Made by a program: the position numbers and the translations under genes
Shown: positions 3,950 through 62,353 of the stretch, piece after piece
How the letters are laid out: the number at the start of each line of letters is the position of its first letter
Numbering within the stretch: the first letter of the stretch is position 1
Notes under the pieces: generated by a model
Told to the model about the DNA's origin: nothing
What the model saw: the letters and a program-made list of their open reading frames with translations, nothing else
Database searches by the model: none
NCBI GenBank assembly: GCA_964467155.1
Contig: CAYXNZ010000001.1
Coordinates: forward strand, 4,070 to 68,069
Reading direction: 5' to 3'
Length of the DNA: 64,000 nucleotides
From: an uncultured Gammaproteobacteria bacterium
GTDB lineage: Bacteria > Patescibacteriota > Patescibacteriia > Patescibacteriales > GWC2-42-12

Positions 3950-4390
3950 ATGGCAAAAAAGGAGGCAGTAAAAACTAAAAATGTAAAAGCCAATCGTCGT
4001 CAACCGATTAAAAAGAAAGAAACAATAGAAGAAATAACCAAACATGAAAAAGACAAGATATTTGCTATGTGGGCGGGCGTTATTTTTTTCATGGTTTTAA
4101 TTTTTATATTTTGGCTTTTCACATTTAGATCTACTATAGAAACTAACTCATCAGTTAACCAGAGCGAACAATTCAATTGGCAAGAAGTAAAACAAGAATT
4201 TAGTCAGACCATGCAAGACGTCAGAGGTAATTTGAATGAGATAAAAGAATTGCGTGAAGAATTTGTAGCAGAGACCAAAGAAACGCAATTATCAGATGAA
4301 CAAATAGAGGAATTAAAGAAAAATATATTAGACAAAAATATTGAGGAAGAAAATATTGCTACTTCTAGTGAAATAATTATACATAATTAA
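3950..4390 (+). CDS. hypothetical membrane-anchored coiled-coil protein
   Basis: ORF track 3920..4390 (GTG), with ATG 3950 (MAKKEAV) preferred. It has a basic N-terminus, one TM (WAGVIFFMVLIFIFWLFTF) and a charged helical C-terminus. Confidence 0.5.
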   Translation: MAKKEAVKTKNVKANRRQPIKKKETIEEITKHEKDKIFAMWAGVIFFMVLIFIFWLFTFRSTIETNSSVNQSEQFNWQEVKQEFSQTMQDVRGNLNEIKELREEFVAETKETQLSDEQIEELKKNILDKNIEEENIATSSEIIIHN

Positions 4391-14064: not shown

Positions 14065-14070
14065 AAATTA

Positions 14071-14104
14071 ACCCGCCTGCCAAGCAAGTTCGCGAGCGGG
14101 CAGG
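14071..14104. repeat. family-2 palindromic element just past the kinase stop codon
   Basis: acccgcctgccaagcaagttcgcgagcgggcagg is about 90% identical to 47589-47621 inside rsmA. It is flanked by a 13-nt direct repeat aattaagaattag (14052-14064 and 14106-14118). Confidence 0.75.
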
Positions 14105-14146
14105 AAATTAAGAATTAGGCGAGGATTATTCTCGTTTTTTTTATCC

Positions 14147-45745: not shown

Positions 45746-46420
45746 TTATTCTAATAAAAATTTTTTAAATTCGTTTTTTTGTTGTTTTGAATCGTTTATA
45801 ATTATATTTGTTAATTTTTCGTATTCTTTTGTGTTTTTAAATTGATCGAGAACAATATTTTTATTACAGAGATTACCTTTTCTTAAATTTAAATAATCCA
45901 TATAACTAGACCACGGCCAACTTGTAGCTTTAGTAATATTGTGAATTTCCGAATTGCCGTTAATGTAGCAAGAGACTTTTTGTAATTGACCGTCTGATTT
46001 TATTTCAACAGCTTTAAATGTTCCCTGAAACAATGAGCCTGATCGATTATGTTTGTTGTTAAAATATCTTGTGTAGCCATAGCCTAATTTGTGCATAAAT
46101 TTTGTTATTCCCTCGTTGATAGATTGCTGGACTAATAAATGGAAATGATTTGGTAAGAGCGAATAGCAAATTATTTTTACCAAAGGAATCTTTTTAGAAG
46201 CTAAGCTACTACAAAAAGAATGTTTTTGTAGTAGCTTAGCTTCTTTATCTTTTAATTGTTTTAAGCGATAAATGCTTTCGATTGGATTAATATTATTAAA
46301 TTCACGCAAGCTAATTAAAAATCTTAAATAATCATTTTTATCAAGAAAAATGTTACGTTTATCTACGCCTCGGTTAAAAATATGATAATAGTTATCTGTT
46401 TGAAATTTAATTTTTCTCAT
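45746..46420 (-). CDS. IS200/IS605-family Y1 (HUH) transposase, RAYT-like
   Basis: The start is moved to MRKIKFQ (46420). It has the HUH motif LLPNHFHLLV, a C-terminal Tyr context (SCYINGNSEIH), and WPWSSY. An in-frame hairpin repeat lies at 46196-46244. Confidence 0.75.
   Translation of the reverse strand: MRKIKFQTDNYYHIFNRGVDKRNIFLDKNDYLRFLISLREFNNINPIESIYRLKQLKDKEAKLLQKHSFCSSLASKKIPLVKIICYSLLPNHFHLLVQQSINEGITKFMHKLGYGYTRYFNNKHNRSGSLFQGTFKAVEIKSDGQLQKVSCYINGNSEIHNITKATSWPWSSYMDYLNLRKGNLCNKNIVLDQFKNTKEYEKLTNIIINDSKQQKNEFKKFLLE
46196..46244. repeat. family-3 hairpin (22-bp perfect stem) inside the RAYT-like gene
   Basis: agaagctaagctactacaaaaa / gaatg / tttttgtagtagcttagcttct. It has the same arms as 49149-49193. 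Confidence 0.9.
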
Positions 46421-46946: not shown

Positions 46947-47846
46947 ATGGATATATATCAACAAACATTAGAACTGTGTAAACAGTATAATATTAAACCT
47001 GCTCGTTCCAAAGGGCAGAATTTTTTAATTAAAGAAGAAGTTTACAATAATATTATTGAAGCAGCTGATTTGAAAAAAGATAATATTGTTTTGGAGATTG
47101 GACCTGGCTTGGGTTTTTTAACAACCAAATTAGCTGATAAAGCAAAACAGGTAATAACAATAGAACTAGATGATAAATTAGCAAAGTATTTAAAGTTTAG
47201 TTTGGAGATACAAAAAATAAAGAATGTTGAAATTATAAACGAGAATATTTTAGATATTGAAATTGAAAAGTTGAAAGTTAAAAATTTTGAATATAAGATT
47301 GTTGCTAATTTGCCATATAATATCACTTCTATTTTTTTGCGCAAATTTTTATCTTTAAAAAATAAACCAAACACAATGGTTTTGATGTTGCAAAAAGAAG
47401 TAGCAGAGAGAATTTTAGCCAAACCAGGCAAAATGAGTTTACTGGCTGTGTCAGTTCAATATTATGCTGAGCCAGAAATAATTGACTATGTCCCAGCTAA
47501 TGCTTTTTGGCCAGAGCCTCAAGTAGATAGCGCAATAGTTAAGTTGAAAGTCAAAAGTCCCTCCAATTCGGCGGGCAGGCAAAAGTCACCCGCCTGCCAA
47601 GCAAGCTTGCGAACGGGCAGGAAAGTTAAACAGGTTGGTGTGGATAAGGAAAGAGATTTTTTTAGATTAATAAAGTTTGGTTTTAGCTCAAAACGAAAGA
47701 TGTTGAAGAATAATTTATCTGTTGGGTACAAAATAACCCAAGAATTAGCAGAAAATAAACTAAAACAAGTAGGTTTTGACCCAAAAATTAGAGCACAAGA
47801 ATTGTCAGTTGAAGGTTGGGTTAAATTGTTTGGAGAATTTAATTGA
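46947..47846 (+). CDS. rsmA: 16S rRNA (adenine1518/1519-N6)-dimethyltransferase RsmA/KsgA
   Basis: The start is moved to MDIYQQT (46947). SKGQNFL, the motif I sequence LEIGPGLGFLT, NLPYNITS and PQVDSAIV are present. It contains a 25-codon repeat-derived insertion. Confidence 0.9.
   Translation: MDIYQQTLELCKQYNIKPARSKGQNFLIKEEVYNNIIEAADLKKDNIVLEIGPGLGFLTTKLADKAKQVITIELDDKLAKYLKFSLEIQKIKNVEIINENILDIEIEKLKVKNFEYKIVANLPYNITSIFLRKFLSLKNKPNTMVLMLQKEVAERILAKPGKMSLLAVSVQYYAEPEIIDYVPANAFWPEPQVDSAIVKLKVKSPSNSAGRQKSPACQASLRTGRKVKQVGVDKERDFFRLIKFGFSSKRKMLKNNLSVGYKITQELAENKLKQVGFDPKIRAQELSVEGWVKLFGEFN
47547..47630 (+). repeat. family-2 element inserted in frame in rsmA
   Basis: acccgcctgccaagcaagcttgcgaacgggcagg (47589-47621) matches 14071-14104. 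It is bounded by aaagtcaaa / aaagttaaa exactly 75 nt apart, and encodes SPSNSAGRQKSPACQASLRTGRKVK. Confidence 0.75.
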
Positions 47847-49126: not shown

Positions 49127-49148
49127 ATTTTTGAAAATTATAAAATAA

Positions 49149-49193
49149 AGAAGCTAAGCTACTACAAAAACTTTTTGTAGTAGCTTAGCTTCT
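49149..49193. repeat. family-3 hairpin, intergenic copy
   Basis: agaagctaagctactacaaaaa / c / tttttgtagtagcttagcttct, with arms identical to 46196-46244. Confidence 0.9.
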
Positions 49194-49952: not shown

Positions 49953-52900
49953 ATGAAAATTAGTCAAATAAGAACAAAATTAATTATTTTTTTAATATTA
50001 TCAATATCTATAATATTGTTTTTTTCTCCATTTATAGGAGTAAAAGCAGCAGATAGTTTTGCGCCATTTCAAATTGAAAAAGGGAGTTTGTCTGGAAATG
50101 ATTTAACAGCTGGCTATAAAATAGAAACTAGAGCTGACGGAACTGAATGGGTTGTTAAACAAGGAGCAATAGAAAGAACAATGAATCAAGTAAAAACCTG
50201 GGCCATTGATGAGGCATGGAAAGAATTAAAAAAATCAAGTGCAGTTGCATTCAAGCAGTCTTTAAAAAAATATCTTAATACTTTGGCTTATGATATGGCT
50301 ACTTATATAGCCACTGGTGACAAAGGACAAGCACCAATGTTTGAAGTTGATAGTTTTGGTGATTTTGTAAGAAATGCAGCGGATGATTATACAGGATATT
50401 TTATAGAAGAACTTGGTAAAAAAGGAATGTGGGGAACTAAATTTAATCTTTGTGAGCCTGATCCGAATGTTAAACTAACGATAAGTCTAGGTTTACAAAA
50501 AATTTCTCGTCCTGATAAGCCGGAATGTACTTTTACAGAAATGAAGAAAAATTGGGATGAAGCTCTGAGTGATCCAAATTTTTTGAATGATTTTCAGGAC
50601 ATGTTTAATCCATGGTCAAATGATTTAGGTATAGCTTTAACGTTACAAACAGGAATGGAAACAGGTGCTAGTCAAGCGGCTGAAGATGCAGCAAACGAAC
50701 GTTTGGAAGGAATGGGTATAAAGGCTAAAACTGACCCAGTAAGTGGAAAAATTAAAACACCTGTAACAATAGTTAGAGAATTTTTTTATAAACCAATAGA
50801 AGATTCATCTGCTTCGGAAAAAATTTTTACAGGTTCTATAGCAGCAGATGTAATTGATGTTTTTTTGAATACTTTGTTGGGCAAATTGGTTGATAAATGG
50901 TTAGACGAAGGTATCGTGACTGATTTTTTTTCAGACAGCAACTCTGCTGATTATACTTATTCTGGTTCTGGTGGAGGAATAGCTGCAGCAAAAGAAAGAT
51001 TTAAAAGTTTAATTGAACCACAGTTTGGTGTTCGGGGTGACTATGATATTTTAGCAGAATTAACGATGTGTTCTGACCCGACTAAAGCTGGACCAACTAA
51101 TTGTGTTATTACAGATAATTTTCGCCAGGCAATTGAAAACCGATTGACGGTTGGGCAGGCGCTAACACAAGGATATTTAAATACGAGTGGAATTTTTGGT
51201 TTTAATGCAGATGGTTTGGAGCCAAATTACAATGAAGGTTATCCGTATCGTTCTATGATAATTTTAAGAAAATTTAGGATATTACCGGTTGGTTGGGAAC
51301 TAGCAGCAGAATATATTAAAGATCATCCAGCAGAGATTGACGGAACAAAAAATTTAGGTGATTTAGTAGCTTGTTATTCAGCTAGCGATGATTATAACGG
51401 GTATTATGCTAATTGGTGTGATGGGCTGGTTGACCCGACATGGGTTTTGAAAGCGCCGTTGAACTATTGTAAGCGCGAAGGTGCTGGACCAGAAATAATT
51501 TCTGAGCAAATTATGGGTGAAGGGTACGACAGCGAATTGACGATATTGAGAGATGACACTTATTGTGCTGATGAGCAGTCCTGCATCCAGGAAAATAGTG
51601 ATGGTTCGTGTAATCTCTATGGCTACTGCACAGAAGAGAGGCGAACATGGAATTTTAATGCTGATTCGTGCGATCCAATTTATAATACTTGTCAGACTTT
51701 CCGTAGTTCAGACGGACAAACAATATCTTATTTAGAAAATACTTTGGATTATGGTATTTGCTCTATTGATAATGTCGGTTGCCAGGCTTATTGTCAGGAT
51801 TACGATAATACAACTGAAAATTACACTTGTACCGAGAGTACTGGTGATAAAATATATTTAGATAGTAATGCCGAAGAATGTTCGGCTGAAAATGAAGGCT
51901 GCCACGAGTTTATTAGAATGAAACCTGGATTGGGTGCAAACATTTTAACTAATTCTGGTTTTGAAGACGATATTGATGGGACGATTTGGCAAGGCGCAGG
52001 AACGCAGGTTTATGATAGTTACGAAGGCAGTCGAGGGTTGGAACTAGTTAGTAATTTATCAAAAACTATTACTTTTGGACCAAATGATTATAATGTAGCT
52101 GGTCAGTATTTTTCCCTATCTTTTTATGCTAAAGATTGTGGTTTGGGAGACAATTTTGAACTAGGTGAGCAAGAAACAGCAACTAGTTTAAATCAAGCTG
52201 AGGATTGGCAATATTATAATACAGCGTATGTTTATTCAACGGATTTTAATTCTAATCAAGTAAACTTTTCTATAAATTCTGATTCTTGCGTGATTGACGC
52301 AATTAAATTAGAACGCGGACAAGTCACTACGACTTATAGTGATTATCGTGGGCAGGGTTTAGTCTATCAAAAATTAGCACCTGATTATTTGTCATGTGAT
52401 GGCGTGGGTGATTCGTCAGCCTGTGATAATTTTGCTCGTACTTGTTTAGAAGATGAAGTTGGTTGTGAAATGTATACTTCAGTCAACGATGATATAAGCG
52501 TGGCAGCAAAAGTTGTAGCACAAGATTATTGTCCGAGTGAATGTGTTGGTTACGATACCTATATTCAAAGTGAGACGATTTTTGATTCTCTACGTGATTC
52601 ATATTTTATTCCAACTACAGCTCAAGTCTGTGGAGCAGAAGCCGTTGGCTGTGATGAATTTACGAATTTAGACGAAGTGGAGTCTGGTGGCGAAGCACGA
52701 GAATATTATTCTTATTTAAGACAATGTATTGGTGTAAATGATAGTCAATGTGCCGAATTTTACACATGGGAAGGTTCTGATGAATCTGGTTATCAATTAA
52801 AAGTTCTGGTGTTAAAAGAAAACCAGACAACCGGCGAGCCAGCATTAACAGAAGATGATTCTACACAATGTAATGAAGCAATTTATAATTTAGACGAAAC

Positions 52901-55900
52901 TGATCCAAGCTATAATACAGATTGTCGACAATTTTACAACAGAGACGGACAATTGTCTTATCATCTCTATACTCGAACAGTTAGCTGTAGTGATAATTGC
53001 CATCCTTATCGTCGAACTGAAATTAATGTCGATCCAGAAATTGTTTTGAGTGGCGAGTGTGTTGGTTCTGATAGACATTGGGATACGCCAACTGCTCAAT
53101 GTGTTGTTTGTAAAAATAGCGGAGAGTGGAGCGACCAACATCAATCTTGTATTTATATGGCTATACCAGGCGAAGGTATGACTTGCGCAGCTAACCAAGC
53201 AGGTTGCCGTGAATATAGTGGTAATACTGGCAATAACATGAGGTTTGTTTTGAACGATGATTTTGAGGGTAGTTTGCAGGACTGGACAGGTGTTAATGGC
53301 ACAACCATTAGTTTGTCCAATGAGTCACTTGTCGTTGGTGGAAATTCATTAGAAATAACAGGTAGCCCATTTACTATAAGTAAAACAGTCGGGCAGAATG
53401 TCTTTAAAGGTAACGCCTATGTTTTAACCTTTAGTGCAAAAGCGAGTAGTGCTTCAGCAATTACTTCAATCCAAATGTCTGACAGTGAAGCTTCAACTGA
53501 TTTTACAACAGTAAATTTGTCTAATGAATGGCAATATTATGAAGTTAATTTAACTAATCTTGACCATGACGTTTTGAGTGACGAAGCGATAGTTATGGAT
53601 GCCGATGGTAGTTTATATATTAATGATATTAGATTAACTGAGATTACTGATCGCTACTATTTAATCAAAAATTCATGGGTAACACCAGACAGTTGTAATC
53701 GTAATATTAAAGGTGAGCCATCTCCTTTATATATGTTAGGCTGTGAAGCTTATTATGACCGAGAAAATGATATACATAATTTACATAATTTTGATTATTT
53801 ATGTGGTAGTTCCGCGGTTGGTTGCGAATTAATGATTGATACGCATAATTATAGCGATTATCAATCAGAAGTATTTAATGAAAATGATGATAGTGAAATT
53901 ACTGTTTTGGCTGATAATTATTCATATATTGTTTATGACTCAAATAAACAATGCAATCAGGATGACAAAGGTTGCCAAAAATTAGGTGAGCCTTATCAAT
54001 ATGAAGATGATTTATTGTATAGTGATAAATATTTAAAAAACAATCCAGATAAATATAATGAAATATTATGTGAAGCAGAAGCAGTTGGTTGTCAGGAATG
54101 GACATCTACTGATGGTACAAATTACTTTAAAGATCCAGGTGATATGGTTTGTCAGTGGCGTCAAGCAGCTGATACGACTGAGCAAGGTTGGGGCTGGTAT
54201 AAGAAAAAAATTAAACGTTGTAATGGTAACGACGGAGATGTTTGTTTGGTTGATAATGATTGTTCAGACGGACAGACTTGCCAAATGGAAACTGAAGATA
54301 TTTCTTGTGCAACAACATATTGGAAAACTTTTGGTTATGGTGGACAAGAATCTCGTATCTATCAACCAGGCGGCGATTGGACCGGTTTATGTTCAGCTAG
54401 TCAAGCTGGTTGTACAGAATATATTGACCCAGTTTCACAATTTAGTTCAAATATTATTTTTAATAATAACTTGGCATCACCTCAAGACGTTGATTCTAAT
54501 GGAATCCCTGATGGTTGGATAAGTTTCGGAGGTGGTTTTAGTCAGGAAGTATCAGCTAATCCTTATACTTTATATCGTTTAAGTAGAAACAGTTTAGCTG
54601 GAAACATTAGTTTAACTTGTAATAATAATATTTATACCTTGGGTAGCAATAATATATTATCAAGCGGAGCAACGACAATTAGCTTGTCAGATGAGAATTA
54701 TAATTCTAGTAAATTAATTTATATATCCAATAATGAATCTTGTGTAATAAATGTGAGTAGTGCCTCAGGTCAAATTGGACTAGCAGAGGCAGTTATAGAT
54801 TATCAATTAAAAGAAGACATTGATAAACAAAGTTGTAATGGCATAATTGATTTTGAAGATGGTTGTGTTTTATTCAATGAACGAGACAGTAGTGGTTCGT
54901 CTTTATCTGGTTTAACTTGGGACGCTGATTTAACTATTTCTGATCAAAGTGGCGTAACTCCACTCGTAGGAGAAGAAAGCAACAGAGATGCTAATGTCAT
55001 AATAAAAGTAACGCCAGATAGAATTTGTGATAAATGGTTGGCTTGTCGTAGCTACATTAAAGATGAAAACGATAATAACGTATGTTTTGATATAGGTTTA
55101 TGTAATAGTGTTGATCCGAATGGTAACTGCAATAGTTTTTTAACAATCGAAAAAGAAAATCAAATTTATCCTGTTGTACTAGATAATTCTGATATTGCTA
55201 ATATGACTGGATATGCTAAAGTCGGTTATTCTAACGGATCAATGGTTAGTGATTATTATTCGTTTGGTGCAATGGAGCAAGAAGGAGAAATGACTAATGT
55301 TGCCAATAGCGGTTTTGAAATAGCTGGTTCAAATGGTTATCCAATTGGATGGATTTGGGAGGGCGGAACGTGGAATGCTAGCGTATTTAAAGTAATAAAT
55401 AATCCAATTGAAACACAGACTGAAGGACTTGGTTATGCACCTGAAGGACAAAACTTTTTAAAACTTGGCTCAAGCTATAATGCAATTAGTGAATTTGTGG
55501 ATGTAGTTGGTGGAACAGCAAATGATCCAATTGAATATATTGTTACCGCCTACATCAATACTCTTAATTTGAAATCAGGTTCAGCCAAAATAAAAATTGG
55601 TTTATATGATAGCGCTGGTAATCATCTAGCTGATGCTTCAATGAACCCAGAAATAACATTAGAGCCTGGTCATGATTGGATATTTAAATTAGGTAGATTT
55701 AATATATCGTCAACAAACGTTAGCCGAATTAAAATTATTCTTTATTCAGATATTGGGACTGAAGGTAATTATTATTTTGATGATATAAAAATAAAACCAG
55801 CCTTGAATTCAAGAGATAGTTGGTACACACCGCAAAGTTGCCGATTGTATCCGCAAACTGATTCTTTGTCGTGTGATTATTATGATAATTCTGGTAAACG

Positions 55901-57518
55901 ACAAAAAGGTTGGTCAGGTTATTGTCTTGAATATGACAGATATCCTGGTTCGGATGATGCTTGTCTTTTGTGGTGGCCAGTTGATAAAGTCAAAGGTGAA
56001 GGTGTAGAGGAAGGAGCAGGATATATTGGAAAAGTACCAGTGTATTATTGCACGGGATTTCAGAGTGGTATTTTAGTTGAGGCCAGAAAAGCTATATGGG
56101 CAAGTGGTTCTTGTAGTTGTCGAGGATATGGAGATGATGATGAATATAATTTAAGTGTTTGTGAAGGATATGGCTGTGAAGATAATATACCAAACGGTTA
56201 TCATGTAGTTGGCACAGGCCATGAGTCTGGCTGTGGGCATGATTGCCCTGGAGGAGGATTACAGAATGCTCGATTTCATCTATATCCAGATTCAGAAGAT
56301 TTTGTTGTTGCTAGTGATGGTTATGATTGGTATAAATATGATGGTGATTTGCAACTAATGGTTGGAAAAGAGACTTGGGATGAAGCTAATCCTGATTTAC
56401 GATTGTACAATCCTGATGATGGCAATTTATATGATCCTAGAATTGCTTGCACTAAAGTTGTTCAAACTGTTACAACAATTGGACAAAATAAATATTGGTC
56501 AGGTCGAGTTTATGAGGGTAGCGATTATGAAACACCATTATCATCCAGAGAATACAGCACAAGAAATTCTCCTTTTGGGTCTATGCAACCTCCTTCCCCC
56601 GTAAATAATCCCTATGAATGGGATGGAATACTTAATACTGAAGATGATAGTTCGGTTCAGCCTGTATATATTACCGTGGATTCAGATTTGGCTAATGCAG
56701 GGACTCCTTACGGTTGTTTAGGAAGTCAGTGTGATAAATTTGGAGTTTGTTCAATTTCAAGAGAGTTGTGTTACAGAGGAGGACTTGAAGCTTCGGGTGA
56801 TAATTTGCGTATGCCCGATGAGTCGTTATTGTGTAATCAAGAAGAAGATTGTGAATATTTTTCCATTAGAGCTAATGGGCAAAAAGAAGTAAAAGGTCTT
56901 TTCGCTCAAAGTTATGGTACATGGGAATGGGATAATAACCTTGGTCGATATAAGATAAGTAATGGTCAAGACTGGGGACCACCAGATAATTTATGCTATT
57001 CTGACGCCACGGGGCCTGATTGTTTACAAAGAACTGGATCATATTCTCGACCAGCTTTTCCTTGTGATTATTGCGCTATTTTACCGAGGATAGAAAATAT
57101 TAGAGTCAACAATAAAAAAAGAGTTATTGGTGAATTTGATGGATTTATAGAATTAACAAAAAGTCAATTCGTTAAGCTGACTTTTAATAGCATAGTTGAC
57201 AGTCAACAGTTGCCTGTGGTTATGTATGCGATTGATTGGGGAGATGGTGAGGAGACAGTAGTGACTGGGGTAGAGATGAGAGCTAGACCAGACGAAAGTA
57301 ATCCTCATTCACTTTATCATTTATATAGTTATTGGGATTTGAAAGCAAAAGATGCTAGCGGAGTGTCTGACATTGATTGTTCAGTTGAAGGTGAATGTCG
57401 GGTAAAACCAAAAATTAAAATTAAAGATAATTGGGGTTGGTGTAATGGTGGTACAGCAATGAATGACTGTGACCAGTGGGTGGATTTTAGTAGTTGGATT
57501 GTAGTGAAGGAAAAATAA
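49953..57518 (+). CDS. giant (2521 aa) secreted cysteine-rich surface protein with CBM-like beta-sandwich modules and a C-terminal PKD-like domain
   Basis: A single uninterrupted ORF with an N-terminal signal/TM segment. The motif C-x5-G-C-x-E-[FYWM] occurs nine times. NSGFE/DDFEG..W modules lie near 51930, 53240, 54450 and 55300. A WGDGEE PKD-like motif lies near 57240. Confidence 0.85.
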   Translation: MKISQIRTKLIIFLILSISIILFFSPFIGVKAADSFAPFQIEKGSLSGNDLTAGYKIETRADGTEWVVKQGAIERTMNQVKTWAIDEAWKELKKSSAVAFKQSLKKYLNTLAYDMATYIATGDKGQAPMFEVDSFGDFVRNAADDYTGYFIEELGKKGMWGTKFNLCEPDPNVKLTISLGLQKISRPDKPECTFTEMKKNWDEALSDPNFLNDFQDMFNPWSNDLGIALTLQTGMETGASQAAEDAANERLEGMGIKAKTDPVSGKIKTPVTIVREFFYKPIEDSSASEKIFTGSIAADVIDVFLNTLLGKLVDKWLDEGIVTDFFSDSNSADYTYSGSGGGIAAAKERFKSLIEPQFGVRGDYDILAELTMCSDPTKAGPTNCVITDNFRQAIENRLTVGQALTQGYLNTSGIFGFNADGLEPNYNEGYPYRSMIILRKFRILPVGWELAAEYIKDHPAEIDGTKNLGDLVACYSASDDYNGYYANWCDGLVDPTWVLKAPLNYCKREGAGPEIISEQIMGEGYDSELTILRDDTYCADEQSCIQENSDGSCNLYGYCTEERRTWNFNADSCDPIYNTCQTFRSSDGQTISYLENTLDYGICSIDNVGCQAYCQDYDNTTENYTCTESTGDKIYLDSNAEECSAENEGCHEFIRMKPGLGANILTNSGFEDDIDGTIWQGAGTQVYDSYEGSRGLELVSNLSKTITFGPNDYNVAGQYFSLSFYAKDCGLGDNFELGEQETATSLNQAEDWQYYNTAYVYSTDFNSNQVNFSINSDSCVIDAIKLERGQVTTTYSDYRGQGLVYQKLAPDYLSCDGVGDSSACDNFARTCLEDEVGCEMYTSVNDDISVAAKVVAQDYCPSECVGYDTYIQSETIFDSLRDSYFIPTTAQVCGAEAVGCDEFTNLDEVESGGEAREYYSYLRQCIGVNDSQCAEFYTWEGSDESGYQLKVLVLKENQTTGEPALTEDDSTQCNEAIYNLDETDPSYNTDCRQFYNRDGQLSYHLYTRTVSCSDNCHPYRRTEINVDPEIVLSGECVGSDRHWDTPTAQCVVCKNSGEWSDQHQSCIYMAIPGEGMTCAANQAGCREYSGNTGNNMRFVLNDDFEGSLQDWTGVNGTTISLSNESLVVGGNSLEITGSPFTISKTVGQNVFKGNAYVLTFSAKASSASAITSIQMSDSEASTDFTTVNLSNEWQYYEVNLTNLDHDVLSDEAIVMDADGSLYINDIRLTEITDRYYLIKNSWVTPDSCNRNIKGEPSPLYMLGCEAYYDRENDIHNLHNFDYLCGSSAVGCELMIDTHNYSDYQSEVFNENDDSEITVLADNYSYIVYDSNKQCNQDDKGCQKLGEPYQYEDDLLYSDKYLKNNPDKYNEILCEAEAVGCQEWTSTDGTNYFKDPGDMVCQWRQAADTTEQGWGWYKKKIKRCNGNDGDVCLVDNDCSDGQTCQMETEDISCATTYWKTFGYGGQESRIYQPGGDWTGLCSASQAGCTEYIDPVSQFSSNIIFNNNLASPQDVDSNGIPDGWISFGGGFSQEVSANPYTLYRLSRNSLAGNISLTCNNNIYTLGSNNILSSGATTISLSDENYNSSKLIYISNNESCVINVSSASGQIGLAEAVIDYQLKEDIDKQSCNGIIDFEDGCVLFNERDSSGSSLSGLTWDADLTISDQSGVTPLVGEESNRDANVIIKVTPDRICDKWLACRSYIKDENDNNVCFDIGLCNSVDPNGNCNSFLTIEKENQIYPVVLDNSDIANMTGYAKVGYSNGSMVSDYYSFGAMEQEGEMTNVANSGFEIAGSNGYPIGWIWEGGTWNASVFKVINNPIETQTEGLGYAPEGQNFLKLGSSYNAISEFVDVVGGTANDPIEYIVTAYINTLNLKSGSAKIKIGLYDSAGNHLADASMNPEITLEPGHDWIFKLGRFNISSTNVSRIKIILYSDIGTEGNYYFDDIKIKPALNSRDSWYTPQSCRLYPQTDSLSCDYYDNSGKRQKGWSGYCLEYDRYPGSDDACLLWWPVDKVKGEGVEEGAGYIGKVPVYYCTGFQSGILVEARKAIWASGSCSCRGYGDDDEYNLSVCEGYGCEDNIPNGYHVVGTGHESGCGHDCPGGGLQNARFHLYPDSEDFVVASDGYDWYKYDGDLQLMVGKETWDEANPDLRLYNPDDGNLYDPRIACTKVVQTVTTIGQNKYWSGRVYEGSDYETPLSSREYSTRNSPFGSMQPPSPVNNPYEWDGILNTEDDSSVQPVYITVDSDLANAGTPYGCLGSQCDKFGVCSISRELCYRGGLEASGDNLRMPDESLLCNQEEDCEYFSIRANGQKEVKGLFAQSYGTWEWDNNLGRYKISNGQDWGPPDNLCYSDATGPDCLQRTGSYSRPAFPCDYCAILPRIENIRVNNKKRVIGEFDGFIELTKSQFVKLTFNSIVDSQQLPVVMYAIDWGDGEETVVTGVEMRARPDESNPHSLYHLYSYWDLKAKDASGVSDIDCSVEGECRVKPKIKIKDNWGWCNGGTAMNDCDQWVDFSSWIVVKEK

Positions 57519-57521
57519 GGT

Positions 57522-57568
57522 GTCTGAACCACTGAAGCACACTGAAAAAACTGAATTACACTGATAAA
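57522..57568. repeat. left inverted repeat flanking the GxxExxY gene
   Basis: gtctgaaccac is followed by reiterated cac(a)tgaa units. It is the partner of 57964-58010. Confidence 0.65.
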
Positions 57569-57660
57569 TATTGAAAATTATGGATTATATTGATGATAAA
57601 TAGTATAAGTCGGATATTACGGCAAAAATAATTAAGGGCGCTTATCAGGTACATAATAAT

Positions 57661-57963
57661 TTGGGTATTGGTTTTCAGGAAATAATATATCAAAGAGCAT
57701 TAGCAATTGAGCTTGGTGAATTAGGATTGAATTTTGAAAGAGAAAAAGAAATGTTGATATTTTATAAGGAATTAGAAATTGGTCAGAGAAGAGTAGATTT
57801 TTTAGTAGAGGATGATATTATGGTTGAATTAAAAGCTTTGGTGCAATTGGATGATGTTCATATAGCTCAATTAATGAATTATATTGAAGCTTACAAAACA
57901 AAGGTTGGTTTGCTTATAAATTTTGGAGCCAAGAAATTGGAAGTAAAAAGATTTATTAAATAA
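57661..57963 (+). CDS. GxxExxY protein (PD-(D/E)XK-like, IVS-associated family); N-terminus interrupted by an in-frame TAG at 57601
   Basis: GFQEIIY, RVDFLVEDDIMVELKA and LLINFG are present. Family-typical residues (ITAKIIKGAYQVHNNLG) continue upstream of the TTG start, back to a TAG that follows ATG 57580. Confidence 0.75.
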   Translation: MGIGFQEIIYQRALAIELGELGLNFEREKEMLIFYKELEIGQRRVDFLVEDDIMVELKALVQLDDVHIAQLMNYIEAYKTKVGLLINFGAKKLEVKRFIK

Positions 57964-58010
57964 ATCATGTGTTTTCAGTGTATTCATGTGTGAATTCATG
58001 TGGTTCAGAC
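57964..58010. repeat. right inverted repeat flanking the GxxExxY gene
   Basis: The reverse complement reads gtctgaaccacatgaattcacacatgaatacactgaaaacacatgat. Confidence 0.65.
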
Positions 58011-58014
58011 GATT

Positions 58015-58596
58015 ATGGGAGATTTAGATAGTACATTATTGAGAAACAATAAGTTGGCTGGACCAGCGCAAGAGGCTTTGGCGCAAAGAAAATTAAGACA
58101 AGGGAGAAGCAATGGAGAAGATAGCGCTCTAGAAGACGAATCAAGTTCTTTAAGACAGAGAATTGCCGCTAAGAAAAAAGCTTTGAATTTGAAAGAAAAA
58201 GCTAAAGAAAAAGTTATGTCGCCGATGAGTCAGGCGACTAAGGGTGCTTTACGCTGGGCATGGTTTAGTCTAATTCCGAGCTTTGGTTTGTCACTGATAT
58301 ACATAAATATGCATGTGTTTCTCCGGTGGGTTTTTCCGAGTGCATTTTGTAAATTAGGAGAGGAGTGGATACCAAAGCAAGTTCAAGCAACTAGTGGAAG
58401 TGCTGGGAAAACGGGAGGCAAGGCGATTGGGATAGTTGAAGTGATGGGACTTTTAATATTAGATATTCTATTAATTTTTATAACAATAAGTGCTTTAGGA
58501 CTTTTGTCTTTAATAGTATCAGCCATAGCTAGTCCGCTAAAAGCAATTTGGGATTTAGGGTGGGGAGGCATACAAGCGTTAATTGATTTATTTTAA
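58015..58596 (+). CDS. hypothetical small membrane protein (2-3 TM)
   Basis: The start is moved to ATG 58015 (MGDLDS). It has a charged N-terminal half and hydrophobic segments WFSLIPSFGLSLIYI and VMGLLILDILLIFITISALGLLSLIV. Confidence 0.5.
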   Translation: MGDLDSTLLRNNKLAGPAQEALAQRKLRQGRSNGEDSALEDESSSLRQRIAAKKKALNLKEKAKEKVMSPMSQATKGALRWAWFSLIPSFGLSLIYINMHVFLRWVFPSAFCKLGEEWIPKQVQATSGSAGKTGGKAIGIVEVMGLLILDILLIFITISALGLLSLIVSAIASPLKAIWDLGWGGIQALIDLF

Positions 58597-58601
58597 TTTT
58601 A

Positions 58602-61055
58602 ATGTTAAAAAATATAAAAAATAAAATTGATATCAAGAAGCATGCCATTTTATTAATAGTTACTTCTTGTTTCGTTGTATCAGTTATTTTTTTTATACCT
58701 TCTATCGTAGAAGCGACAACATCAGATTTAATAAGCGGTACTGTGGGAGTGGCTGTGGCAACAGTAATCGGCTGGATAACGTCCATATTGTCTGCCATAA
58801 TCGGTTTAATACTAACTTTATTGATAAAAATTTTAGTTAATGTAGCTCAATTTAACAATATAATAAATGTGGAAGCGGTATCACAAGGATGGAAAATAGT
58901 TCGTGATTTGTGCAATATGTTTTTTATACTAATTTTATTAGTTATTGCCTTTGCGACTATTTTAAAATTGGAAAATTATAGTGTTAAAAAACTATTGCCG
59001 AAGTTATTAATAATGGCAGTATTGATTAATTTTTCAAGAACTATTTGTGGTTTGATAATAGATTTTGGACAAGTGATAATGCTTACTTTTGTTAATGGTT
59101 TTGGTGACCATGGCGTTAATAATTTTATAAATTTATTTAATATACAAAATTATCAAAGAATATCTAGTAGTTTAGGCGATAAAAAGGTGTCTAATTTTTC
59201 AGTTGCAGGTGCCTTTATTGCTGGTTTAATAGCCATGATAATAACTACAATTGTTGTTTTAATGATGTTAGCAATTCTTGTTATGAGAATAATAATGCTA
59301 TGGGTTTATACAATTTTATCTCCACTCGCTTTTTTGGCTTCTGCTTTTCCAGCTGGGGCAAAGTATGCCCAGCAATGGTGGGGTGAATTTACAAAACAAG
59401 TTATAGTTGGACCAGTGTTGGCATTTTTTATTTGGTTAGCATTGACAACTGCACAAAAATCGTCTACAGCATTAGGTACTTTTGGTGCAGGAGAAGGTTT
59501 GGATGGTCAGGCTTGTGCTGGCATAAATGCCTTTTTTTGCGAAGGTAATTTACAGACATATATAATAACAATAGGTTTATTGGTTGGTGGTCTTATGGTG
59601 GCTCAACAAATGGGTAGTATAACAGGAAATATTGCTGGAAAAGGGTTGAGTTGGGCAAAGGGAGTTGGAAGAGGTCTAGGAAAAGGTTCGTTGGTGGGAC
59701 TGGATTGGGTAAACAGAAAACAGGCGTCTGGTAAAAGAGGAGCAGGAATTGATCTTAATCCTTTTCGACAAGCTGAAAGGATTAAGGCATCTCTTGATAG
59801 AAGTAAAGCAAAAGATTTAGATGATGTTGAAGACAAAGGTAGTGCTCGATTAAAAAAAGGAGGGTGGACAGGGGCGGTTGGTGGATTTACCGCTGCCGGT
59901 TGGGGTGATCAGCATTTGAGAGGATTTTTAGGATACAAGGGATTAATGTCAGCCGTGAGAGGTAATGAAGATAATGTAGGGGAATGGAGAAAAGAAGAGA
60001 AAGAAAACAAATGGATGGCAGAAAATGCTGGAGATAGTTATACAAAAAATTTAAGAGGATTAATTCATAATAAAATTAATGCTAACGCGGCTGGCGATGA
60101 AGATGCTGTTCAAAAATATACTGACGAAATTCTAAAATTAAATAAAAATAAAAAAGAATTAACTAGCCATAACGCCGAGTATTTTACAAAAAAACAAACA
60201 AAAGCCGCAAATTTAGCTGCCAAATATGAAGTTAGAGATTACGAAGGAGGAAAAAGAAGACGTACTGCTGAAAACGAAGAAAGAAGCAAGATTACTTCAA
60301 AAAACGAAGATGAACTAATAGCTCAATTTGGAAATGCTATTTCTCATAACAATAAATCTTTGACTGGGGCATTAGCTAAGGCAATAACTGAAGTGGGTGG
60401 TGGTAACGCATTGTTAAAAAAATATGGTTACCAAGCTACGGCTGGCTTAACTGAAGATGAAGCGAAGGGTAAATCAGATAAAGAGATTATGGATAAAAGA
60501 GGTTTGAATGACTTTATGAGAGATATTTTTGAAAAAAAATTAGGATTAGATAAACAAAGCACATTGGCTTTGCAGAGTGATTTAGGCGGAATTGGTGAAG
60601 CAATAGGACATGATTATTTAATAAAAACGGTTGGTGTTGATGATCAAGGTAGATTTTACCAGAACAACGAAAAAGACAGAAATCGTGTAAAAACAGAAGA
60701 AAAGATTAAGAGAGAACCAGAAGGTGTAATAAGAAAAAATAATCGTTTAGAATATGGAGCCGAAGATATTCATACGGGTGATTTTAATTGGTCAGACTCT
60801 GGCTTAGCTACTTTTATTTCTAATATTGATATGGTTAATAAAGAAATAGATGGTAAAAGATTTAATCGTAGTGCTGCTCAGGCAATTACCCAAGATGATT
60901 CTATGGCTAAATTAATGCAAAAATTGCAACAGCTAAATATTAAGAAAATACAAACTAAAGAAGGGCACTCTATTTCTTTGAAGGAATTTACAGATAAACT
61001 TAATGCCTACGGAAAACAAGCTAGTACAGATCAATTAGACAAGCTGTTGGCTTAA
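58602..61055 (+). CDS. polytopic membrane protein, VirB6/TrbL-like, with a ~450-aa soluble C-terminal domain
   Basis: It has a signal-like N-terminus and about 6-7 TM helices with TrbL-like spacing (LCNMFFILILLVIAF, LLIMAVLINFSRTICGLIIDFGQVIMLTF). A charged C-terminal region follows. The assignment is by resemblance only. Confidence 0.45.
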   Translation: MLKNIKNKIDIKKHAILLIVTSCFVVSVIFFIPSIVEATTSDLISGTVGVAVATVIGWITSILSAIIGLILTLLIKILVNVAQFNNIINVEAVSQGWKIVRDLCNMFFILILLVIAFATILKLENYSVKKLLPKLLIMAVLINFSRTICGLIIDFGQVIMLTFVNGFGDHGVNNFINLFNIQNYQRISSSLGDKKVSNFSVAGAFIAGLIAMIITTIVVLMMLAILVMRIIMLWVYTILSPLAFLASAFPAGAKYAQQWWGEFTKQVIVGPVLAFFIWLALTTAQKSSTALGTFGAGEGLDGQACAGINAFFCEGNLQTYIITIGLLVGGLMVAQQMGSITGNIAGKGLSWAKGVGRGLGKGSLVGLDWVNRKQASGKRGAGIDLNPFRQAERIKASLDRSKAKDLDDVEDKGSARLKKGGWTGAVGGFTAAGWGDQHLRGFLGYKGLMSAVRGNEDNVGEWRKEEKENKWMAENAGDSYTKNLRGLIHNKINANAAGDEDAVQKYTDEILKLNKNKKELTSHNAEYFTKKQTKAANLAAKYEVRDYEGGKRRRTAENEERSKITSKNEDELIAQFGNAISHNNKSLTGALAKAITEVGGGNALLKKYGYQATAGLTEDEAKGKSDKEIMDKRGLNDFMRDIFEKKLGLDKQSTLALQSDLGGIGEAIGHDYLIKTVGVDDQGRFYQNNEKDRNRVKTEEKIKREPEGVIRKNNRLEYGAEDIHTGDFNWSDSGLATFISNIDMVNKEIDGKRFNRSAAQAITQDDSMAKLMQKLQQLNIKKIQTKEGHSISLKEFTDKLNAYGKQASTDQLDKLLA

Positions 61056-61068
61056 TAATTTAATAAAC

Positions 61069-61920
61069 ATGGATACAAAAAAAATATTAAAAGAAGTTGA
61101 AGAAGTCATAAAATTTGATGAGGTGAATACTGCTCATCAGTTTATTGTTGAATTGGAAAATTATTCTAAAACAAATGAATTCCAAAAACAGGATTTAAAA
61201 ATACAAGAGAGTATAAAAAAAATAATTACGCAATTAAAATGGGTGGCTTTACCTTATTGTTTTGAAAAAGATATCTTAGAGATGTTCAGTAGTCATTTTC
61301 AAATTGCTTTAGAAATGGAGTATTTTGATATTTGGGATAAAATTAAAAACACTTTAGTGGCAATTATTCTTCACGAAGATAGAGATAAATTTAAACAACA
61401 AATAAAAAAAATAATAGAAAGAAATAAAGCAAAAATATCCAAAGATAAATTAAATAATAGCATTGAACCAACAGTGGAAAATTGGATAAAAAAATATAGT
61501 GGTTATATTGGTCTAGGGGTAGCTGATAAATTAAAATTTAATCAATTTATTGTTAACGACATAGACATAAAAAAATTAGATGGAATTTATAAAAAAAATG
61601 TTATAGATTTCTTTAAATTTTATGAAAAATTAAAATTATCTTCTCTAACTGTTGTAGGAATAGAAGAATCAATTCCAGTTAACACCCCACAATTCAAAGG
61701 ATATATTAGAGATGGGAGATTGGAAAAAGAAACAAAATTAAGTCCAGAAATTCAAAAAATACTTGATGTTGTTAGTGCAGGAGAAGATGCAACAATTGAA
61801 ATAGCCGTAGATAAAGACGGTAATAAGAGCAGTTTGCAACAATTATTACAAAATTATCCCGAAGGAAGTCTGGAGAGACGGGCAATTGAAGAGGAAATGA
61901 AGAAAATTTCTAAATTATAA
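61069..61920 (+). CDS. hypothetical soluble protein
   Basis: 283 aa, helical and charged, with no recognised motif. Confidence 0.45.
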   Translation: MDTKKILKEVEEVIKFDEVNTAHQFIVELENYSKTNEFQKQDLKIQESIKKIITQLKWVALPYCFEKDILEMFSSHFQIALEMEYFDIWDKIKNTLVAIILHEDRDKFKQQIKKIIERNKAKISKDKLNNSIEPTVENWIKKYSGYIGLGVADKLKFNQFIVNDIDIKKLDGIYKKNVIDFFKFYEKLKLSSLTVVGIEESIPVNTPQFKGYIRDGRLEKETKLSPEIQKILDVVSAGEDATIEIAVDKDGNKSSLQQLLQNYPEGSLERRAIEEEMKKISKL

Positions 61921-61946
61921 TGTCTAATTACTAATTTAAAAAGTAA

Positions 61947-62312
61947 ATGAGCGTCAATGGTAAGAAGTATGATTTAGAAGAGCGAACTGCAATTTTTGGT
62001 GAAAATATAATAAATTTTACTAAAAAATTACCAAAAAATATTATTACTAGCTCAATAATTAGCCAATTAGTTAAGGCGAGTACTAGTGTCGGGGCAAATT
62101 ATTGTGAGGCTGATTGTGCTGAAACAAAAAAAGATTTTGAACATAAAATAGGAATTAGTAAAAAAGAATCAAGAGAATCAAAACATTGGTTAAGAATGAT
62201 AGCCATGGCAGTGCCAGAAATAAAAAATGAAGCTAGAATATTATGGAAAGAAGCCAATGAATTAAATTTAATATTTATAGCTATTGTTAATAATTCTAGA
62301 AAGAATAGTTAA
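61947..62312 (+). CDS. four-helix-bundle protein (23S rRNA IVS protein family)
   Basis: YDLEERTAIFGENIINFTKKLP...QLVKASTSVGANYCEA...ESRESKHWLRM. Confidence 0.8.
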   Translation: MSVNGKKYDLEERTAIFGENIINFTKKLPKNIITSSIISQLVKASTSVGANYCEADCAETKKDFEHKIGISKKESRESKHWLRMIAMAVPEIKNEARILWKEANELNLIFIAIVNNSRKNS

Positions 62313-62353
62313 GTTTTATTTTTTAGAAATTATAATTTAGAAATTATAAATTC

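Follow-up and report, generated by a model that had tools for sequence, protein, structure and literature searches.

The subject of this analysis is a 489-nt palindromic cassette that lies between two operon genes in a 64 kb stretch of Patescibacteria DNA (33% GC; positions 4,070 to 68,069 of contig CAYXNZ010000001.1), the whole of which is referred to below as the window. The cassette is probably a mobile element resembling both intervening sequences (IVSs) and miniature inverted-repeat transposable elements (MITEs), belonging to a family dispersed among Patescibacteria in which a gene for a PD-(D/E)XK nuclease may occupy the centre. Comparison across loci showed that this gene, of the GxxExxY family, is an optional central cargo of the palindromic repeat family. 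As indicated by gene order and sequence identity, the element entered the very short spacer between a giant gene and its operon partner in an ancestor of several related lineages, and has since been both inherited vertically and exchanged between strains. In the population represented by the window, the nuclease gene is a decaying pseudogene.

Cassette anatomy and the GxxExxY pseudogene

The cassette and the genes around it have the following coordinates in the window.

57522-57568, + strand: left arm (F), which opens with the terminus GTCTGAACCAC and continues with CACTGA-type units spaced every 9-10 nt
57580-57963, + strand: full-length GxxExxY (PD-(D/E)XK) frame of 127 codons, a pseudogene, in which codon 8 is TAG where homologues have Tyr
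57601-57603, + strand: in-frame TAG nonsense codon, fixed across nine independent assemblies
57661-57963, + strand: residual open reading frame (ORF) of 100 aa starting at TTG, as called by gene callers, lacking predicted helix 1 (residues 11-28)
57964-58010, + strand: right arm (R), an inverted copy of the left arm, which begins directly after the TAA of the ORF and ends in GTGGTTCAGAC
49953-57518, + strand: upstream neighbour, a giant gene of 2521 aa whose TAA stop codon lies 3 nt before the left arm
58015-58596, + strand: downstream neighbour, encoding a 193-aa membrane protein, with its ATG 4 nt past the right arm
58602-61055, + strand: TrbL/VirB6-like gene, next after the gene of the 193-aa membrane protein

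The 11-nt termini GTCTGAACCAC and GTGGTTCAGAC are perfectly complementary, and the terminal 11-mer (with up to one mismatch) was found three times in the 64 kb against an expectation of 0.29. In the minimum free energy structure of 57515-58020 the two arms were paired over their entire length. When the arms alone were folded with a short loop, an energy of -45.2 kcal/mol was obtained compared with -18.6 ± 3.2 kcal/mol for shuffled sequences (z -8.4, none of 200 shuffles being as good), and a z of -10.1 was obtained when the arms were shuffled separately, ruling out a chance inverted repeat. Together with the family profiles given below, the fold places an extended stem around an ORF of an IVS family, which is a feature of IVSs. 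An earlier description of this DNA, made from the letters alone and referred to here as the original prediction, had reported the arms, the ORF, its start codons, the TAG and the neighbouring genes, all of which were correct on re-examination; it had also anticipated that the arms would pair and had named complementarity no better than chance as grounds for giving the cassette up, and the shuffled sequences proved far weaker than the arms.

The enclosed ORF was assigned to GxxExxY/PDDEXK_3 by PF13366 (E = 2.7e-38; 131 bits against a cut-off of 22; profile positions 2-117 of 117, a full-length family match) and by TIGR04256 (E = 1.7e-39; 135 bits against a cut-off of 35), with the profile match beginning 4-5 residues past the TAG. 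The catalytic motifs in the window frame are G31-F-Q-E34-I-I-Y37, D73, E83-L-K85 and Q97...Y101, of which E34, D73, E83, K85, Q97 and Y101 were invariant across 64 homologues. An AlphaFold model (predicted local distance difference test score 92.3, predicted template modelling score 0.84) has a minimal alpha-beta nuclease core, for which weak matches to proteins of the PD-(D/E)XK fold were returned by Foldseek, namely Cas4 (4ic1), a lambda-exonuclease-like enzyme, tRNA-splicing endonucleases, the R2 endonuclease domain, the Holliday-junction resolvase Hjc and the catalytic domain of the homing endonuclease I-Bth0305I. No solved structure of a GxxExxY family member was found by sequence search. 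Judged by the conserved motifs and the modelled fold, intact family copies are plausibly active nucleases.

The closest homologues (75-86% identity, 127-128 aa) have the N-terminus MNYVDDKYYKSDITAKII (M-N-Y-V-D-D-K-Y-Y-K-S-D-I-T). Because the N-termini of the homologues align, ATG 57580, which is in frame with the ORF, is taken as the ancestral start, and TTG 57661 is the earliest canonical start downstream of the TAG. The interruption that the original prediction had placed between these two starts is present and occupies a conserved Tyr position, where TAY has been changed to TAG. Over 57450-58080, including the TAG, complete identity (100%) was seen in nine contigs assembled from distinct samples of ENA, JGI and Logan, which rules out a sequencing or assembly error at this codon. 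The stop codons of the 43 window genes are TAA (34), TAG (8) and TGA (1); TAG is thus an ordinary stop in this genome and the GxxExxY gene, which lacks an intact expressible reading frame, is therefore a pseudogene.

A second allele of the cassette, found in another sample (L009 1-356, equivalent to window 57666-58020), carries a 1-nt deletion in a T6 run within the catalytic VDFLV segment, resulting in a frameshift, and nine substitutions across 57669-57979 (~310 nt), while its adjoining downstream gene (58015-58600) is 100% identical to that of the window. The earlier suggestion that the resident gene may be decaying was thus borne out by the TAG in nine assemblies, by the ordinary use of TAG as a stop and by the frameshift in L009. 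Decayed ORFs were also found elsewhere in the family, including a nonsense codon in L116, a nested insertion that splits the GxxExxY gene in L115 and the replacement of the catalytic Glu by Lys in L122. Repeated decay of this kind is expected of a selfish nuclease gene once it is fixed. As the change of Tyr8 to TAG killed the nuclease gene, the window copy is probably an immobile relic.

It is very improbable that the gene is still functional, either through readthrough or recoding of the TAG or through an active 100-aa product translated from TTG 57661. The remaining frame is intact with all catalytic residues present, and one public gene call reads the TAG as Gln. However, TAG terminates eight of the 43 window genes, the product from TTG would lose predicted helix 1, and the sister allele is frameshifted in its catalytic region. 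The Gln call itself (protein P0001, L011 577-960), which yields an apparently intact protein of 127 aa, is an artefact of an alternative genetic code applied to a 1-kb contig, the underlying DNA of which has TAG; recoding of TAG was ruled out on this basis and by its common use as a stop in the window.

Dispersal, synteny and exchange of the element

The arm motif GTCTGAACCACTGA(N4)CACTGA, which comprises 20 specified bases and for which about one chance match was expected, was found at 101 metagenome loci. Most of these are without a GxxExxY gene and consist of ORF-less hairpins of ~100 nt, at least 35 distinct examples of which, 68-150 nt in length, span GTCTGAACC to GGTTCAGAC. The hairpin arms are composed of CACTGA, CACGTGA or CACATGA units, with four to five units per arm and the units inverted between arms. 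At about 15 loci a GxxExxY gene is located beside or inside the element, and in L116, L122, L164 and L171 elements of 474-510 nt with the order F-gene-R are built like the 489 nt of the window; GxxExxY (127 aa) was the sole type of ORF found inside members of the family. Terminal inverted repeats, small size and presence at many unrelated loci (101 loci, at least 35 solo hairpins) are the properties by which MITEs are recognised, and several contigs (L139, L158 and L165) carry multiple copies. The occurrence of the motif at 101 loci in many contexts rules out a repeat that is regulatory at one locus only. A phage origin was likewise rejected, with no match to the arm motif among 2.9 million viral contigs and a single weak PHROGs match to a family of unknown function. 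Accordingly, one part of the cassette claim in the original prediction stands, in that arms and gene form a recurring unit at this slot and at unrelated loci, but the arms are not specific to GxxExxY and mostly form ORF-less hairpins.

In L111, L113 and L148 the loops contain unrelated nested palindromic inserts (e.g. GGGACTGTCGCCGAATGC...GCATTCGGCGACAGTCCC in L113), which suggests that the element is prone to further insertion at its centre. The GxxExxY gene family and its link to rRNA IVSs are already known, the family description placing it in IVSs of 23S rRNA. No paper on these hairpins, on their conserved termini or on GxxExxY cassettes outside rRNA or at operon junctions was found in the open-access literature, and the hairpin family, which is apparently widespread in Patescibacteria, appears to be undescribed so far.

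The nearest GxxExxY genes share the slot of the window cassette (P0003/L012, P0005/L013, P0004/L014-L023 and P0023/L075), with the gene order giant gene (2.6-2.8 k aa), GxxExxY, membrane protein of ~200 aa and TrbL/VirB6-like gene. The insertion at the window locus is old because at least five related lineages carry the cassette in the identical slot, and the synteny of L012, L013, L014-L023 and L075 rules out a recent insertion private to the window genome. The repeat of the window recurs in the flanks of these genes, as GTCTAAACCACTGAAGCACACTGA in L012 and L013, as a 38-nt tandem unit GTCTGAACCACTGATGATCACTGAAAGCACTGATAACT in the P0004 group (two to four copies, varying by sample, followed by an inverted copy) and with the compensated termini GTCCGGACC...GGTCCGGAC in L075; homology to the right arm of the window was found in the R arm at each of L013, L014 and L075. 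The arrangement is F-gene-R in the window, F-gene-F-R in L013 and a complete hairpin on either side of the gene in the P0004 group and L049, such that the hairpins of the relatives are often local, at one or both sides of the gene, instead of enclosing it. The original prediction would have been undermined by an absence of the arms from other GxxExxY loci and by relatives with the gene in this position but no repeats; repeats flank GxxExxY in L012, L013, L014, L075 and elsewhere. Inverted repeats are present on the flanks at all eight GxxExxY loci that a protein search yielded, and the association of repeat and gene is therefore not a sampling artefact.

The conserved C-terminal domain of the giant protein was scanned against one genome per species, yielding 51 loci (L024-L074). 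The junction with the partner gene is empty (1-43 nt) in seven of these (L025, L028, L029, L036, L042, L043 and L044), which provides the empty orthologous site that the original prediction had proposed to look for. Elsewhere it is filled by a four-helix-bundle gene (L030, L034) or by genes named from their translations as ORF6N-like (L034, L035, L049), GIY-YIG (L037, L038), AAA ATPase (L031, L046) and nucleotidyltransferase/HEPN-like (L050, L051). GxxExxY is present only at L040 and L049, which are also the only two with CACTGA clusters (none at the other 49), and an ORF-less hairpin of the same design, built from CGCTGA units, is found at the same junction in L026. To judge by what it contains, the spacer downstream of the giant gene resembles a hot spot for small genes of selfish appearance.

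Sequence comparison of the cassettes with their surroundings sets the history of the insert apart from that of the adjoining DNA. Three distinct contexts were found for the gene of the P0058 protein. A sister cassette, in L076 and L077, shares 99.4% identity between TGTCTGAACC and GGTTCAGACAATG, and the sequences beyond these points are unrelated. The P0085 cassette (L079) has the same termini and lies between two Laminin_G-type giant genes. Within the P0004 group (L014-L023) the ORF is identical between contigs at 384 of 384 nt, compared with 76-87% identity over the last 300 nt of the giant gene and 88% in the downstream gene, and upstream and downstream flank types occur in mosaic combinations. 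Between species the ORF has 81-86% nucleotide identity versus 63-73% in the flanks, and between the window and L075 the divergence is about equal (74% in the ORF, 71-76% in the flanks). Empty and occupied alleles and an insert history decoupled from that of the flanks, as known from homing genes, are thus seen in the empty junctions, the P0004 group and L009. Taken together, the shared slot and the discordance of ORF and flanks indicate long residence of the cassette in this slot as well as horizontal exchange. The mobile, IVS-like cassette of the original prediction is accordingly supported by the identity of L076 and L077 and by the empty junctions, but its insertion at this locus was not recent.

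Placement relative to neighbouring genes was assessed using a simple ORF-based neighbour call. The upstream ORF ended within the terminus of the element in 11 of ~36 junctions, with the stop codon drawn from GTC-TGA in seven, from CAC-TGA in two and overlapping the first G in two, and it ended 1-7 nt before the element in six further junctions, including that of the window (3 nt). The downstream start codon was at most 11 nt from the other end in 13 of ~39 junctions, the distance being 4 nt in six, among them the window and L075. As read from the sequence, units spaced at 9-10 nt present TGA in all three frames on either strand. The flanking gene pairs were co-directional in 19 cases, convergent in four and divergent in five. 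No terminator-like sites were found in the cassette region and promoter-like matches there were at chance level. Two solo hairpins (L165 1890-2050 and 5207-5325) were observed within a type-IV-secretion-like operon with PrgI-family and VirB4/TraG-like genes; in each case the GTC-TGA of the element terminates the upstream ORF, and the downstream gene begins 4 nt past the element.

Further cassettes and repeats

A second cassette with the same architecture is present in the same operon.

61905-62345, + strand: second cassette, in which an inverted repeat brackets a four-helix-bundle gene

The enclosed gene (61947-62312) encodes 23S_rRNA_IVP (TIGR02436), and the inverted repeat is 30 nt long with 16 bp perfect (AATTTCTAAATTATAA), giving a z of -5.1 when the arms alone are folded. 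The stop codon of the preceding gene falls within the left arm, and the right arm ends 8 nt short of the following ATG. Comparable bracketing, by significant inverted repeats whose sequences are unrelated (z -5.0 to -6.4), was seen around the four-helix-bundle genes in L030 and L034, around the GIY-YIG gene in L037 and around the GxxExxY gene in L088, the last of which has only 30% identity. A survey of rRNA insertions in these bacteria includes 23S_rRNA_IVP (four-helix-bundle) and GIY-YIG among the encoded proteins (PMC11270868). A diversity-generating retroelement with the four-helix-bundle protein as Avd was considered and rejected, as no template/variable repeat pair was found in the window and the neighbouring genes are without a reverse-transcriptase domain.

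Two other repeat pairs were observed in the window. A GC-rich direct repeat of 43 nt (14065-14107 and 47582-47624; 88% identical; ACCCGCCTGCCAAGCAAG.TCGCGA.CGGGCAGG) is conspicuous against the 33% GC of the rest of the window, and has its first copy directly after a stop codon and a weak predicted fold (z ~ -1). An inverted repeat of 39 nt (46219-46257 and 49136-49174; 92% complementary) has its copies 2.9 kb apart around four genes, with the right copy contributing to a local terminator-like hairpin (49157-49185; z -4.6). Upstream of most window genes the DNA is rich in AT and a Shine-Dalgarno sequence is not recognisable.

Competing explanations and related systems

A stem of ~45 bp should form in the polycistronic transcript and could be cleaved there. 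That the cassette serves the host as an IVS-style mRNA stem, cut by RNase III so as to uncouple the giant-gene message from the downstream genes or set their stability, with the repeats retained on that account, is nevertheless rather unlikely, and would not preclude mobility; conversely, a mobile element may also have its stem processed by RNase III. Such a role is favoured by the long imperfect duplex predicted on the sense strand, by the position of the element end 4 nt from the next start codon and by the membership of GxxExxY and four-helix-bundle proteins in the families of RNase III-processed 23S rRNA IVSs (established knowledge; background in PMC11270868). However, the antisense arms fold equally well (-43.4 versus -45.2 kcal/mol), and across 33 elements oriented by transcription or ORF the arm mismatches comprised 31 sense G·U, 36 antisense G·U and 238 transversions, i.e. 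no strand bias in G·U. RNAalifold retained only a 13-bp terminal stem, and there was no element-specific covariation of the arms, the inner-arm complementarity score being 19.2 within elements and 20.0 between them. Compensatory evolution of the stem was rejected on these three measures, none of which gives the structure independent evolutionary support. Since the score of an element's own arms does not exceed that between elements, the complementarity follows from inverted arrays of one consensus unit, a pattern that protein-binding sites or a palindrome in the DNA would explain no worse than a selected helix in RNA. Moreover, the elements occur in both orientations and also between convergent or divergent genes, with the ORF antisense to its neighbour in L116, L164 and L171. 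Known structured RNAs were ruled out, Rfam giving no match at the gathering threshold or at E values up to 1 for the window region and 20 hairpin loci. The location typical of an IVS, within a helix of 23S or 16S rRNA, does not apply, as no rRNA is present in the window and the element lies between two protein-coding genes.

Immobile repeats that act as operator or iteron sites, through which a small protein such as a toxin or defence protein regulates its own gene, are improbable. Hexamer units about one helical turn apart on both sides of the gene and the DNA-nuclease fold of the protein family would suit such sites, but most copies of the repeat lack any gene, near-identical cassettes are found in unrelated contexts, and PADLOC, which was also the basis for rejecting a defence system, yielded weak Cas4-like similarity and no defence-system match. 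Scarcely credible is an integron-type gene cassette with the hairpins as attC sites. The termini GTCTGAAC...GTTCAGAC resemble attC core sites (RYYYAAC...GTTRRRY) plus one extra base, and the hairpin-gene-hairpin order of L014 and L049 is reminiscent of a cassette array; yet the ORF is inside the hairpin, not between hairpins, in the window, L116, L122, L164 and L171, arms of 9-10-nt units are foreign to attC sites, and in the loci read no integrase gene or array was seen, the elements being single and within ordinary operons.

Several observations weigh against the mobile element that we favour. The other 63.5 kb of the window are without a second copy, and vertical descent alone (five related lineages) could explain the cassette at this locus. 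No clear target-site duplication was found; the flanks ATT[...]AAT are reverse complements and not a direct repeat, and may be an extension of the inverted repeat or AT-rich spacers. The two arms of an element are no more complementary to each other than to those of other elements, and the hairpin may simply reflect the inverted arraying of a single binding motif. Finally, the presumed action of the nuclease on the arms of its own element or at empty sites would come from a protein of 127 aa with no obvious strand-transfer activity, so that any mobility must depend on host repair or recombination.

For a mobile element of this type, the intact nuclease would be the element's own mobility enzyme, either a homing-type or a structure-specific endonuclease, with the CACTGA arrays or cruciform, or else unoccupied sites, as its targets. 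Host recombination would copy the element after the nuclease cut, and the solo hairpins would be non-autonomous, MITE-like derivatives. Insertion at operon junctions would be tolerated because the element ends carry TGA in several frames and the stem sets the upstream stop codon beside the downstream start codon. As a tentative and more general possibility, GxxExxY proteins may be the mobility nucleases of an unrecognised class of palindromic elements, in which the arms would consist of arrayed hexamers bound by the nuclease and would extrude to form a hairpin or cruciform, hairpins of ~100 nt lacking an ORF would be the non-autonomous, MITE-like offspring, ORF-bearing rRNA IVSs would be the same elements in rRNA, and the four-helix-bundle and GIY-YIG cassettes would be parallel versions.

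To our knowledge, the function of the rRNA-IVS proteins (GxxExxY and four-helix-bundle) has been obscure for decades, and how IVSs move is not known. The window locus and its relatives present GxxExxY outside rRNA, as optional cargo of a multi-copy palindromic element with conserved ends, and the near-identical copies in differing contexts, together with empty sites for comparison, open the question to experiment: a defined protein (intact P0004 or P0058), CACTGA-arm DNA or RNA substrates and empty targets are at hand. The annotation of Patescibacteria is also affected, as the hairpins provide upstream genes with stop codons, make repeat numbers vary, probably lead to breaks in assemblies, and mark recombination mosaics around giant surface-protein genes.

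Among known systems, 23S rRNA IVSs with an ORF share the same small-protein families (four-helix-bundle/S23p and GxxExxY), the placement of the ORF between long stem-forming inverted repeats, the existence of short ORF-less versions and a sporadic distribution suggestive of horizontal transfer (established knowledge; PMC11270868). In contrast to these, the window-type element is flanked by protein-coding genes instead of being embedded in an rRNA helix, and its arms are arrays of 6-nt units with a conserved 14-nt terminus throughout the family. MITEs and small palindromic repeats (Correia/NEMIS, RUP, ERIC) are similar in their length of ~100 nt, terminal inverted repeats, multiple copies, intergenic position, frequent location in operons and capacity to fold, whereas the only ORF of the present element encodes a 127-aa PD-(D/E)XK nuclease and not a DDE transposase, and no target-site duplication could be defined. 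REPIN-RAYT systems likewise pair a population of ORF-less hairpins with one 'master' copy that carries a single gene and is itself bordered by those repeats, but RAYTs are HUH/Y1 transposases of the IS200/IS605 type, unlike the PD-(D/E)XK nuclease found here inside the hairpin. Homing endonuclease genes, such as those of the PD-(D/E)XK enzymes I-Ssp6803I and I-Bth0305I, are comparable as small free-standing nuclease genes in a non-essential insert, with empty and occupied alleles, identical inserts in diverged backgrounds and an ORF that is often degenerate; the carrier described here differs from theirs in being neither a self-splicing intron nor an intein and in having no conserved target sequence evident at its insertion sites.

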